A DNA stretch of 64,000 bases from Eledone cirrhosa. Lineage: Eukaryota. Below the pieces are notes generated by a model, which had not been told where the DNA came from, did not search any database, and saw only the letters and a program-made list of their open reading frames with translations. The translations under genes were made by a program, and so were the position numbers. Location of the stretch: positions 41,168,001 through 41,232,000 of the forward strand of contig OZ024744.1 of the NCBI GenBank assembly GCA_964016885.1, given 5' to 3'. This document shows positions 10,928 to 31,101 of this stretch, one piece after another (the stretch's first letter is position 1; the number at the start of each line of letters is the position of its first letter).

Positions 10928-13900
10928 TGACAGCAGATGGACCGCCTGACCATCGGAGCACGTCCCTTCCACAAAAAGCAAAAGAGCAAACGCTCCAGTG
11001 CAGTCAGGCGTGGCATAGGACAAGGCATGATGGTCAGGTGGTAGTAGATGACGGACGCGATGTACGCATTCGTCACCTCCGCTCGACCTTTCAGGGATAA
11101 CTTCCCCTCAGCCCATATCTGGGTGAGAGAAGCCACGCTGCTCGTCACCTCGTCCCAGTTTTTGTCCGTCTGGAGGTCCGGACCGAACCAGACCCCTAGC
11201 AATTTAACCGGTCCGTCTGTCCAGCATCCGACGACGCTGTTGGACGGCATGGAACTTCCTCTACAGGTGCCGAGTTGCATGCCTACTGATTTTTCCTGAT
11301 TGATCATTGCTTCTGTCACCACCTCGTATTCTCTTAGTGTGGTGCCAATCGCCTCGATGTGTTTAGCGTTCAATACCACTACGGTGCATATGATGACACG
11401 GTTCTTCCGCATCCTAATTCGCGTGCCCCCCCCCCCCTCACCCCTCAACGTCTCCAGTTTGTGCAGTAATGGCTCGAGAGGGGACATCCTTGGCGGACCA
11501 AAGCCAGCTGCTCTTAGGACTGCCACCAGATAACGATGGTCGACCCTATCGAAAGCTTCGACTGATCTAAATTGATCAAGGACCCACTCGTGCCAGGTTC
11601 CCTAGCTACCTACTCTACGATGTATCGCATGAGGTGGAGGTTGTTGTGGATGGATCTGTCTGGAATGGCGCATGGTTGCGCCTCTCCCACCAGACCACCA
11701 ACGACAAGCCCCAACCTCTTTGCTAGCACCTTAGCTAAAATCTTGAAGTCTGTGTTTAGTAGAGTTATGAGCCTGAAATTATCTATGTTATCCCCCTTAT
11801 TCGGATACTTTCTCAGCAGCGACACCGCTCCTCGGCTCACAGAGCTGGAAATTTTCCCGTTCTGCTGCCCGTTGCAGTAGACGTCTGCCAAGCGGTCTTC
11901 GAACAAGTTTGGCATATGTAAGTAAAGTTCGTAGGGCAGATCATCTAAACAGGGCGATTTACCCATTGTACAGCTAGTCATTGCCTTCCGTGCTTCAGCA
12001 GCAGTTATCGTGGTCGAGAGCCGCGGCAGTCCGTCGAGGTAGGCACTGAAGTCCATTCCACGATGCAGTTCGCCACTGCCCCCGAACAGGTTAGCAAATT
12101 GTTGCTGAAAAGCCGCACGCATCTGCCCGGGATTGAGTATAATGCGCCCGTCGTCGTCCGCCAATGACAGGATTGTGGCTTGAACACATTCCAGTCTCCA
12201 AGCGCTCCCTCTCGGTCTTCGCTTGACCCAAGTCTGTAGTTCCGTCAAGGAGACGATCTAGGGAAAGACGCATCTAGCAAACGGCGACCACACCTGATCA
12301 CCACCGAGGAAGAGGTGGATATGTCGTAGCCTGGATGCATGTCTGTGCATCATCAGCCATGGCATGCCCAGCCCTCCACATAGGGGGTGTTGACAGCATA
12401 TGGACCGCCTGACCATCGGAGCGCGTCCCTTCCACAAAAAGCGAAAGAGCAAACGTTCCAGCGCAGTCAGGCGAGGCTTAGAACAAGGCACGACGGTCAG
12501 GCGGTAGTAGATGACGGACGCGATGTACGCGTTAGCCACCTCCGCTCGACCTTTCAGTGATAGCTTCCTCTCCGCCCATTTCTGGGTGAGAGAAGCCACC
12601 CTGCTCGTCACCTCGTCCTAGTTTTTGTCCGTCTGAAGGTGGACCGAACCAGACCCCTAGCAATTTAACCGGTCCGTCTATCCAGCGCCCGACGACGCTG
12701 TTGGACGGCATGGACATGCCGCTCCAGGTGCCGCCTCGTATTCTCTTAGTGTAGTTCCAATCGCCTCAATGTGTCTGGCGTTCTATACCACTACAGTGAC
12801 GTCGTCTGCATATGCTGACACGGATCTTCCGCATCCTAGTTCGCACGGGACCCCCTCAACATCTCCGTGCAGTAATGGCTCGAGAGTCAATACGTACAAC
12901 AGGGACAAGAGGGGACATCCTTGGCAGACCTAGCGCATGATATTGAACGGTTCCGAAAGGTGACCGTTCACTCTCACCACAGAGCAGATGTCGCTATGCA
13001 TGGCAGTGATCCAGCCTCTGAAGACGGTCCTAGAGCTAGCCGCCCTCAGGACTGCCGCCAGATAACGATTGGCGACCGTATCGAAAGCTTTCGGCTGAAA
13101 TTATCTATGTTATCTATATTGTTCGGATCCTTTCTCAGCAGTGCCACCGCTCCTCGGATCACAGAGCTAGGAATTCTCCCGCCGCAGTCCGTCCTGGTAG
13201 GCACTAAAGTCCATCCTGCGATACAGCCCGCCGCTGCCCCCGAACAGCTGAGCGAAGTGTTGTTGAAAAGCTTCACACATTTGCCCGGGATCGAGTAGCA
13301 TGCGCCCGTAGTGGTCTACCAAAGACCGGATCATGGCTTTGTTGCTACGACGCACCTCCGCCACCCGGGCCCATTGATCGGCTTTCATCCCCTCGTGTCT
13401 GAGAGCACGCACCCGAGCTCTGATAACGCAACCTTCGTGCTTTGCATTGAAGAATTGGTCGAGGGCCAATTTCGCCGCAAGCATGTCGGTCGCGATGCCT
13501 TTAGTAAGCGCCTCGTCTAATTCTCTAACTAGTTCTCCTTCTGCTCCTATTTTTCTCTATTGTTAACGCCTTACTAAACCTAAAGTCCCTGCCTCCATGA
13601 CGAACCCAGGCCATTTATGCTACCTATTCTGAGTAAGGTCATGTTGAAAGGAGTGGAAAAAGATGGGAAAGACCACTTACCTCACTTCTTGTGTAGGAAA
13701 GATGGTTTCTCCATCCTTATCACTGCTTGTGGCCCCCTCTGGAAGGACGTCTTTATAAATCCTCCTGGAAAGTATTTGTCAGAAGTCTCCGATGTCCTCG
13801 GGAATTTTGAGTTTAGTGTCGTGTATATTTTCTGTATGATGCGAGTAATTTGTATGTGGGGGGGTGGGGGGGGATTTTTGGGGATGTTGTATAGTCTTTT

Positions 13901-15812
13901 TCTGTGATGCTGGTGTTGTATTGGATGTAGTGTAATAATTGGTTGTCAAATTTAATGCTGTGTAGTGTGTATCGTTTTGGCTGCTTTGTTTTGATTGTGT
14001 TTGTTGTAGGTTCGTTTCTGTTTCGTTTGTTGGTGATTTTTGTGGTGTTGGTGATGGTGGTGTTGGGGTTGATGATGGTGATGGTGTTGGTGATGGTGGT
14101 GTTGGGGTTGATGATGGTGATGGTGTTGGTGTTTGTGGTGATGGGGCTGGTGATGCTGGCGTGGGTGGTGACATATCTGCCTTTTTGTTAGTTTGTTTGT
14201 TTCACCCTGCATTTTGATTTGGAGGGCGAAGGAAGAGGATTTTTCCATATTGGGGTTCTTTCATTTTTCTTTTTTCCAGATACAGTTTCCCACTCCTCCT
14301 CGCTGTCACAATCTGTCTCTAGTTGCGAGAGGTCGGGGAGTAGAAATTCATCCACAGGCATTGGTTTTGGTTGTGGCGTGGTGGAAGGTGGAGGCGCTGG
14401 TGCTAATTCTGGCGCGGTGGGTGGTGGTGGTGTTGGTTTTGCTACTGTTGCTGCTACAGTTGCTGGGGTTGTTGCTGCCATTTCTGCTTCTGGTTTTGAT
14501 GGTTGAGTCACCGGGGTGGGCAGGAGAGGTGGTCTCAACTTTTTAGCATGAGGGCACAACCGACACACCTAGGCCTTCTACCCTCAACGATTACGGTGAG
14601 GTGGCTGCAGCCATTGAAGTCTATCATCTCTGGAATTTCCTGTATGTTTTTGATCCGCTTGAATCAGGAGCTCCATCCCAGATCCGGACCAGTTCTCCTG
14701 CTTTATTTTTATCACCTCAATTACTTTAGTGTTGGCCTCGATGTTGGCGAGGAGAGCAGTCATTAGCCAGGGAATTTCAATGGCCAGCGGAATCTGGGTC
14801 ACCCTGATCCTCACCAGCCTCTGACCACAATAGCTTGGGACGAGTGTGAACTCGTCACTTTTTAATGGGGCCATAGATGCTCTCTGGCTTCCTGTGGGGT
14901 TCCAAAGAACACGTCCATGGTTCCATATTATTGCCCACGTCTGATGTGGGATTTTGAGCCCACACATGTCCCAAAGCTTTTTGTATCTGGGACTCGGATG
15001 CCCGTTCCATTCAGCGTGTTTTAATGTTTATCGTATGATATGACACGGTGCATAGGCGCCGATTCTCCATGGTATTAGATGGTGGGTGAGGTTGACACTG
15101 TAACCATATTTTTTTACCATTCGCTTGGCTTCATTCAATTCTTCCTGGTTTACCTCCACCGTTTCATTTTTGTTTGCTGCTTTAACAAACGACACATTTT
15201 GTTTTTCGCTGGTGTTGATGTTGTTGTTGTTAATCTTATTGTTTCTGTTGTTTCTGTTGTTATTTTTAGTTTCAAGAGTCGATTTTCGGAGAATCCATTT
15301 CAATATCACGATATAATAATTTATTTTTTGTTTCAGTTGTTGCTGTGGTGGTGGTATCAGTGATGTTGGTTGTTCTTTTTGACATTGTGGTGGTGGGGGT
15401 GGCGGCTTTAACAGCTGTAAACATTGGTAATGGTGGGAAATCCATGTCTGTATGTGACAAATCTAAATAATTGCCACTGCTATTACTTATATTTTCAGTG
15501 TTGGCAAACGTAGCAAGGTTTACAATGGTGTTGGTGGTGGGAGATGTTAGTCTATTAGAAAAGCTGTCAGCAAATTTTGGTAGCTGAATGCCGTCCATGT
15601 TTTTTTTCCAAGGAAATTTTTTGTTTGATAAATATAAAGTTTAAATTTTGGGCTCAAGGCCCCAATATTATTGAGTGCCTTTTTCGGAAAGCAATATATG
15701 TGAACTTATAAACACTTAACAACAAAGATTTTCCATAACTGGCAATTGAAACAACTGAAAACAACAAACCTTTGTACTGCTCACGATAATACAATTTTCT
15801 ACGTAGGTCGCC
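10928..15812 (-). mobile_element. Degenerate, rearranged Tx1-clade LINE
   Basis: Same 5' end (GGCGACCTACGTAG) as the full copy. ORF1 remnant at ~13690-15598; ORF2 has an APE deletion and a duplicated RT block (10928-12175 versus 12180-13590). Confidence 0.9.
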
Positions 15813-15866
15813 AATAATAATAATAATAATAATGATAATAATAATAATAATAATAATAATAATAAT
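15813..15866. repeat. (AAT)n spacer between tandem Tx1 copies
   Basis: Directly visible. Confidence 0.95.
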
Positions 15867-16109
15867 GTTTTCTTTATTAACCACAAGGGTTCACATAAAG
15901 TAGACATTAAGGACAGTACAGGACAATACAGGACGGTACAAATGGGCATTTCTGCGTGTAAAAAAACAGAGGTTGAAATAAAATAACAAAGAAAAATTCC
16001 CCAATAGGGGGGAGACTTCCAAGGGACATTTGTGGAGAAAGCCCATTAAAAGACCACAGTGGCCCTGACCACCAGGGCAAGTGCCCTCTCCCAGTTTTCC
16101 ACCTTTAAT

Positions 16110-30395: not shown

Positions 30396-30412
30396 CAATA
30401 ATAATAATAATA

Positions 30413-30591
30413 ATTGTTTCTACTTCTGGCACAAGTCCAGCAATTATTGCAGTGTATTACTGGTACTTTATTTTATCGACCCCGTAAGGACGAAAGGCAA
30501 AGTTAACCTCGGCGGGATATGAACTCAGACCATAAAGGACCTTAACTCTTTGCTGTAAAGCATGGCGTCCGACCCTCTACCGATACTGCCA
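30413..30591 (-). mobile_element. SINE family B in (AAT)n
   Basis: TTGGCAGTATCGGTAGAG head, B box and AGAAACAATTATT tail; further fragments at 29451-29507 and 30733-31035. Confidence 0.8.
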
Positions 30592-31101
30592 AAATAATAA
30601 TAATGTTTTTCAAACATTACAATGAACCACGCACCCCACCACCACCACCACCGCCACTGCCACTACTACCACCGAAAAATGAAAATGATAATGGTTTGTT
30701 GATGTTGATGGTGGTGATGCTGATGATAATGGTTGTTTCTTCTTTTAGAACAAGGCCAGCGATTTCCACAGAGAATTGTTGTTGCTCTGTCTTGTCGACC
30801 CCGTGAAGTGAGGAGTGGGGTTGACCTTGGCAGGATTTGTGCTCAGACCATAAATGGCAGATGCTGAAGATCATAATAATTGTATCACTTTTGGCACAGA
30901 GCCAGCGATTGACCTCTGCAGGGTTTGTGCTCAGACCATAAATGGTAGATGCTGATGATAATGGTGGTTGTTTCTGTTTAGGGCACAGTGCCAGCAATTG
31001 CTCCAGTATATTACTCTGTTTTATTGACTCCGTAAGATAATAATAATGACTTATAAACAGGATTCACATTAGGAAAATATTAAAAACAGCACAAAAAAAT
31101 A

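Follow-up and report, generated by a model that had tools for sequence, protein, structure and literature searches.

A stretch of 64,000 nucleotides of the Eledone cirrhosa genome (assembly GCA_964016885.1, contig OZ024744.1, forward-strand positions 41,168,001 to 41,232,000; called the window here, with positions counted from its first letter) carries at 10928-30604 an array of retrotransposons joined by tracts of the microsatellite (AAT)n. Two unrelated kinds of long interspersed nuclear elements (LINEs) are found there: Tx1-type elements that encode an apurinic/apyrimidinic-type endonuclease (APE), and R4/Dong-type elements that encode a restriction-like endonuclease (RLE). Copies sampled elsewhere in the genome adjoin the same repeat with fixed and opposite polarity: the ATT strand gives the reading direction of Tx1, the AAT strand that of Dong. 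From these sequence comparisons we propose, at a probability of roughly 0.8, that several Tx1-type and two R4/Dong-type families insert strand-specifically into (AAT)n tracts throughout the genome and that the arrays grow by sequential insertion.

Landing sites of Tx1 and Dong

Whether AAT is a landing site or a mere tail can be asked without circularity by choosing genomic places through the 3′ end of an element (the best 40 matches per 3′ end, that is, young copies) and then reading their 5′ ends. Among Tx1 copies selected in this manner, 37/40 have ATT at the 5′ junction and none has AAT; among copies of the main Dong family, DongA, 37/40 have AAT and none has ATT. The family-specific strand is thus present at 74/80 5′ junctions, compared with a background of 0.1-0.2% (0.185% of window positions outside the array have at least 4 units within 45 nt upstream, and tracts of at least 10 units, together with the positions next to them, make up approximately 0.1% of the genome). 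The 37 Tx1 copies comprise 34 full-length and 3 truncated ones, two of the latter having degenerate or slightly displaced tracts. For DongA, 5′-truncated copies are particularly informative: AAT is found at 33 of their 34 5′ junctions, and it is therefore not just a tail. The earlier note on this DNA had proposed that both LINE lineages are specific for one microsatellite with fixed opposite polarity, which these counts bear out; the random 5′ flanks or unbiased orientation that it had set against its own proposal are not what the sampled copies show, one DongA copy with an unrelated 5′ flank (see below) apart.

Samples selected in other ways gave similar results. In 30/30 Tx1 copies picked by their 5′ end, the element is immediately preceded by (ATT)n, and across that tract lies the tail of another Tx1 (17), a Dong element (10, one of them 5′-inverted) or other DNA (3). 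When Dong was picked by its 5′ region, AAT was present in 26/30, absent in 2 and not visible in 2. Target-sequence specificity of Tx1 was found in the 5′-end-picked, 3′-end-picked and tract-picked samples alike, and the Dong copies sampled have the (TAA)n target in sense orientation. The polarity rule holds across Tx1 second open reading frames (ORF2s) that are 74% identical and Dong ORFs that are 39% identical.

Starting from the repeat itself, the 3.0-Gb assembly contains 13,579 tracts of at least 10 units that start after C/G, a class enriched for element ends by construction, and 7,683 that start with a non-A base plus T. Within the first 30 tracts of each class on contig C1, 26/30 and 15/30, respectively, adjoin Tx1 or Dong (41/60), and no polarity violation was observed in the 63 junctions of these 60 position-ordered tracts, 32 being 5′ junctions. 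The tracts are also clustered: for the first 100 of the C/G class, 34/99 neighbouring pairs lie within 12 kb, versus 3.3 expected, and 33/34 of these close pairs are on the same strand, compared with 23/50 of the pairs more than 50 kb apart. Six clusters that were examined include mixed arrays of approximately 25 and 29 kb. One array has an inverted segment in which ATT tracts occur together with reversed elements, so polarity tracks the local strand of the tract. A further dispersed repeat with an internal (AAT)n tract has the same flanks in 5/30 tracts (L295, L297, L302, L303, L309; also L008, L216, L300); some of its copies hold an inserted Dong or Tx1, and it may seed arrays.

Several points weigh against this reading. 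The samples as a whole lean towards young copies. The tract counts cover two of the four start phases; the tracts sampled lie within the first 27 Mb of a single chromosome, and neighbours among them are not independent of one another. Duplicate loci within the samples are L026/L027 and L288/L289. Assembled contigs and one short-read run, none of which spans the elements, showed no empty allele. The remaining 3/40 Tx1 copies are truncated, fused head-to-head to DongA and have no tract. Truncated Tx1 copies are altogether few and less clean: ATT is present in 3/6 of the 3′-picked set, and all 12 seen comprise 7 with ATT and 5 fusions to Dong. One DongA copy (L290) has an unrelated 5′ flank, and two that run into another leader were left unscored. 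The evidence on target duplication, given below, is mixed. All five tract-less Tx1 5′ junctions (L089, L090, L113, L118, L243) are head-to-head fusions with DongA; these fusions still lie within arrays and would most simply be insertions, or later events, accompanied by deletion.

Element structure and Dong leaders

The coding content of the two lineages agrees with the earlier assignment of APE-encoding Tx1 copies to the minus strand and of RLE-encoding R4/Dong copies to the plus strand. The minus-strand ORF2 at 19529-16110 (1139 aa), within the ORF spanning 16110-19568, has an N-terminal APE, a reverse transcriptase (RT) and a C-terminal CCHC motif, as indicated by PF03372, PF00078 and PF13966, by motif positions and by alignment to L1 ORF2p. 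The plus-strand ORFs of DongA, and likewise the ORF of a second family, DongB, known from other loci, encode RT, CCHC and the PD..D..K motif of RLE, with APE absent; in the window elements this endonuclease motif aligns with R2 proteins, which are also the nearest solved structures. None of the homologues listed for the Dong protein bears an informative name. Pfam gave no match in the Dong N-terminus, where a Myb/SANT-like resemblance is apparent by eye only.

The best named match of Tx1 ORF2 is 'Transposon TX1 149 kDa protein' (32%, 302 bits; human L1 ORF2p scores 182 bits), a placement by similarity and not by a tree with named references; no other homologue listed has an informative name. 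The separate upstream ORF1 is interrupted in the window copy and open over approximately 700 aa in the sister copies L160, L168 and L170, and at the 3′ end of full-length Tx1 the hexamer AATAAA stands six bases ahead of the (ATT)n run. A first look at the genome returned 2265 (5′ end) and 1268 (3′ end) candidates for Tx1, and 1544-1628 for the 5′ parts of DongA. At least four Tx1 5′ types with ORF2s that are 74-96% identical were distinguished, all along the ATT strand, and each type begins with G immediately after ATT. L160, L161, L162, L163, L168 and L170 combine 96%-identical ORF2s with unrelated 5′ untranslated region (UTR) and ORF1, the switch being located near the ORF2 start.

DongB, also on the AAT strand, has an open ORF of 1216 aa that is 38.7% identical to that of DongA. 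The two families have almost no DNA similarity outside the first 440 nt of a common 5′ leader (75-80%); the first 380 nt of the DongA leader are 75% identical to the DongB leader. The leader at 24868-25930 had previously been listed as a separate piece of the array, a view that we abandon, as it is the 5′ kilobase of full-length Dong, and 18/30 loci picked by the Dong region preceding the ORF begin at the exact leader start. An independent LINE is ruled out, since Dong bodies come after the leader. An origin from the Tx1 5′ UTR/ORF1 was likewise rejected: DNA scores against five Tx1 5′ ends are at or near the shuffle maximum, and layout alone is alike. No ribozyme was detected in the leader by Rfam, and a strict descriptor gave 0 hits, this being a weak test run without positive control.

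Leaders have been exchanged in both directions between DongA and DongB. When 38 leaders were compared in a tree, the leader of one DongA body grouped with the B type and those of two DongB bodies grouped on the A side, with L164 as a further case; these reciprocal leader-body mismatches indicate swaps both ways. Head-to-tail placement in common tracts probably allowed this exchange.

Further particularities of Dong were recorded. Leader-body cases are located at window 24868-25310, at L154, L164 and L269, and on contig C1 near 2,796,100 and 19,079,000. Six DongA copies have a duplicated leader segment (positions 149-762), and at L159 79-1410 (also L029) the 5′ part of a DongA copy is inverted after an AAT tract. 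The arrangement resembles the twin-priming inversions of L1, although Dong is an RLE element. At Dong 5′ junctions, short stretches of the element are duplicated (L038, L066, L158, L276, L285), and (GAA)n runs are found between AAT tracts and Dong starts. Words of DongA (queries window 21760-26300 and 24868-29406) are common to ten other organisms at 0.25-0.63 (runs X5-X14); in contigs from three of these, the longest DongA pieces are mostly 96-99% identical and have AAT tails (one at depth 2-4 only), and Tx1 is abundant in one other organism. This sharing of DongA may reflect close relatives, horizontal transfer or contamination.

Priming strands and array growth

In target-primed reverse transcription, the priming strand is the complement of the one that the element follows, AAT for elements along ATT and ATT for those along AAT. 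Opposite orientation thus implies opposite priming strands: the A-rich strand would likely serve for priming by the Tx1 APE and the T-rich strand for priming by the Dong RLE, with pairing between the repeat at the RNA 3′ end and the nicked strand as a likely contributor to priming. It had been suggested that two different endonuclease chemistries prime on opposite strands of the microsatellite. Opposite priming is what orientation implies; chemistry as its cause is not established. TRAS and SART, which are both APE elements, run in opposite ways, so enzyme type alone is not the cause of polarity, and SINE-B, a short interspersed element (SINE) without enzyme, shows a polarity of 24:0 beside tracts.

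SINE-B had also been counted among the AAT-specific members of the array, which does not hold: among the loci examined, a sample enriched for arrays, 92/116 copies have no upstream tract, and the 24/116 with at least 4 units upstream all have ATT, AAT being found in 0. Elsewhere in the window SINE-B lacks AAT at its 5′ end, for example at 33593-33767, inside a Dong 3′ UTR and with a 17-bp duplication. Duplications of 10-25 bp flank 23 of the 30 best copies, nearly all beginning with ATTA and mostly in ordinary AT-rich DNA (a few of these copies lie in ATT runs and are uninformative). SINE-B is probably a passenger with a loose ATTA preference, whose polarity, which is that of Tx1, would stem from the pairing of its own ATT tail. 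Mobilisation by Tx1 or Dong via a common 3′ end was considered and rejected, as comparison with four Tx1 and Dong 3′ ends gave scores within those of shuffles and no shared 3′ end. SINE-B resembles RTE-related SINEs with microsatellite-like tails, in which target duplications are ordinary and share their first base with the 3′ repeat (PMC6007223; citations here and below refer to excerpts of the sources), and differs from them in that no partner LINE was identified.

These data bear on a rather unlikely alternative for the LINEs, namely that the RNA sets both target and polarity: a loosely specific endonuclease would nick TpA on either strand, and only nicks paired with the repeat would be extended, without any need for strand-specific enzymes. 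TpA steps are indeed present in both strands of the repeat, all 24 tract-flanked copies of the enzyme-less SINE-B follow ATT, its duplications start with ATTA, the same as its tail, and RNA-target pairing has been discussed for RTE and R1-type elements (PMC6007223, PMC7265360). However, loose priming as in SINE-B leaves 92/116 copies outside tracts, whereas Tx1 and Dong are found almost only in long ones, and in TRAS/SART swapped endonucleases altered target choice (PMC7265360). RNA pairing is, moreover, compatible with strand-specific targeting by the two LINE lineages.

A tract is left on either side of each insertion, so that new targets stay available next to old copies and the mixed, polarised arrays can grow. 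The arrays are built by independent sequential insertion. The outer flanks of 10 head-to-tail Tx1 pairs are not alike, and divergence among the upstream copies is uncorrelated with that among the downstream copies (Mantel rho -0.01, p 0.48), so neighbouring Tx1 elements arrived separately; the same pairs provide no support for co-mobilised Tx1 dimers. It is improbable that the arrays stem from tandem or segmental duplication, or from copied read-through dimers, instead of repeated targeting. In 17/30 cases a Tx1 5′ end comes after another Tx1 tail, 8/10 head-to-tail pairs agree in their two subfamilies and in which of these comes first, L004 and L014 have the upstream Dong truncation point in common, and a few loci are duplicates. 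Against such an origin stand, besides the differing outer flanks and uncorrelated distances, the divergence of neighbours (1-4.6%), the variable truncation points of Dong and the presence of solo copies in tracts.

The pure tracts around 37 full-length Tx1 copies have medians of approximately 10 units on the 5′ side and 13 on the 3′ side (hand count), and long arrays retain tracts of about 5-37 units, so the target is renewed and not merely halved. Duplication length is unreadable in pure repeats, and interrupted tracts alone are informative: the Tx1 locus L231 shows a duplication of 17 bp without any added tail, while at L161, L163, L247 and L254 the tract is interrupted 6-12 bp ahead of the 5′ junction, and this interruption is absent at the 3′ side. 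The notion of a self-growing array therefore stands as regards sequential independent insertion, as seen in the 10 pairs; regrowth through the RNA tail is not established, given L231, and the other four loci argue against long duplications. Short target duplication, the copying of read-through repeat and slippage would probably all contribute to regrowth.

An assembly artefact is very improbable for the window array: the array at 15.8-30.6 kb is known from the assembly alone, yet its copies differ (by 1.5% between Dong copies and by 10-26% between Tx1 copies), and an identical array grammar is present on contigs C1-C4 and others. That AAT is a tail only, with random insertion and better survival in repeat-rich, gene-poor DNA, has a negligible probability, for although the region is repeat-rich and some junctions lack tracts, selection is unable to yield base-exact, strand-specific junctions such as the 74/80 observed.

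The features of the window array are listed in Table 1. Seven (AAT)n junction tracts, all with AAT on the plus strand, separate its elements across 15813-30604, in the order and on the strands given by the earlier note, and the window is free of (ATT)3 runs from 9728 to 53115. That note can be refined at the left end: the first Tx1 copy is decayed, its ORF2 pieces being rearranged and partly duplicated and its 3′ end missing, and its left edge is (AT)63, not AAT.

Table 1. Features of the (AAT)n-linked retrotransposon array (window positions)
Feature	Positions	Strand	Remarks
Decayed Tx1-type copy	10928-15812	-	self-BLAST blocks, 74-90% identity to intact copy
5′ UTR and broken ORF1 of decayed Tx1 copy	13587-15812	-	stops in ORF1 frames
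(AAT)18	15813-15866	+	5′ flank of first Tx1, 3′ flank of second
Full-length Tx1-type LINE, 5.77 kb	15867-21637	-	5′ UTR, interrupted ORF1, open ORF2
(AAT)39	21638-21755	+	between head-to-head Tx1 and Dong
5′-truncated R4/Dong-type copy (DongA)	21756-24827	+	frame open through RT, CCHC, RLE; 98.5% identity to next copy
(AAT)13	24822-24861	+	tail and target
5′ leader of full-length DongA	24868-25930	+	belongs to Dong element
Full-length DongA, 4.54 kb	24868-29406	+	ORF from ATG 25931, interrupted by premature stops
(AAT)18	29398-29451	+	between tail-to-tail Dong and SINE-B fragment
SINE-B, 3′ 57 bp only	29452-29507	-	
(AAT)5	29508-29522	+	
5′-truncated Tx1, 3′ 874 bp only	29523-30396	-	87% identity to full copy (locus L121)
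(AAT)6	30397-30414	+	5′ flank of Tx1 fragment, tail of SINE-B
SINE-B without its first ~10 nt	30415-30592	-	passenger, not target-specific
(AAT)4	30593-30604	+	right edge of array

The window also contains repeats that are not part of the array. At 32971-34005, a SINE-B flanked by a 17-bp duplication interrupts a second Dong 3′ fragment, which is followed by (AAT)3 and another SINE-B. Many copies of a PHD-encoding LINE (RT and PHD finger) that terminate in (GAT)n/(ATC)n runs lie at 35400-61443. A (TA)n-bounded repeat (9185-9752, 31551-32825, 52105-53209) and inverted pairs (9749-10095/10399-10745; 31968-32825) resemble non-autonomous DNA transposons. An assembly gap of 200 bases is located at 54518-54717.

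Known systems and significance

R1 (APE) and R2 (RLE) share the multicopy 28S rDNA of insects, where they occupy different sites of the gene in the same orientation. Unlike R1 and R2, the elements described here share the same repeat, in opposite orientation and in open-ended arrays. A parallel in orientation is provided by two families of Bombyx mori, TRAS and SART, which insert into (TTAGG)n facing opposite ways; both belong to the APE type, carry poly(A) tails and are telomeric (PMC7265360), whereas here APE and RLE elements are combined on a dispersed microsatellite with thousands of sites and without poly(A).

Each lineage also has known relatives on microsatellites, and the grouping of target-specific clades is treated in PMC4640811. 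Insertion of Dong into (TAA)n is established, molluscs included, and the present Dong elements are like Bombyx mori Dong, DongAg, DongBg and Darwinula Dong in having a single ORF with RT, CCHC and RLE, the (TAA)n target and TAA upstream (PMC3812793, PMC7998251, PMC3774820). They differ from known Dong elements in that two families 39% identical have a common leader of approximately 1 kb and that an APE element uses their target as well; the 5′ self-cleaving ribozyme of B. mori Dong (PMC3774820) has no counterpart found here by Rfam or a simple descriptor. Microsatellite-specific Tx1 elements include Kibi on (TC)n, Koshi on (TTC)n and crocodilian elements on (TTCC)n/(TTTC)n, with which the present Tx1 shares two ORFs, the APE-RT-CCHC order and microsatellite on both flanks (PMC4494074, PMC3812793); the target (ATT)n is different, the comparison being one of features, not of phylogeny. 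Active families of Dong-R4 and L1-Tx1 have been listed for Octopus vulgaris (PMC13282606, PMC8967140), in excerpts that contain no target analysis. The literature searched contained neither a Tx1 on (ATT)n nor APE and RLE elements sharing one microsatellite; Repbase, subscription journals and supplements were outside this scope, and may list a Tx1 of this kind. The system thus combines known behaviours in a new manner, (ATT)n being probably a new Tx1 target, and the exchange of leaders was unexpected.

More broadly, and at somewhat less than even odds, an APE and an RLE lineage may have come to use, by convergence, the two strands of a single dispersed microsatellite that they co-maintain, such that most long (AAT)n tracts of this 3-Gb genome would be both made and renewed by them, in thousands of self-extending, polarised arrays where distant families swap 5′ promoter leaders, insertions being soaked up away from genes. 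The observations add (ATT)n to the targets of the Tx1 clade. They also provide a natural pair in which unrelated endonuclease types face one recognition problem on opposite strands, so that a repeat of three bases can serve to test the contributions of enzyme and RNA pairing directly; as both lineages include young copies whose reading frames are open, such assays are feasible. Leader exchange between Dong families that are 39% identical bears on the transcription of RLE elements outside rDNA. Our results further suggest that a large share of the long AAT microsatellites here may be retrotransposon junctions, which bears on microsatellite origin, marker design and repeat annotation. An otherwise harmless repeat would in this manner become a common landing site for two unrelated kinds of retrotransposon.

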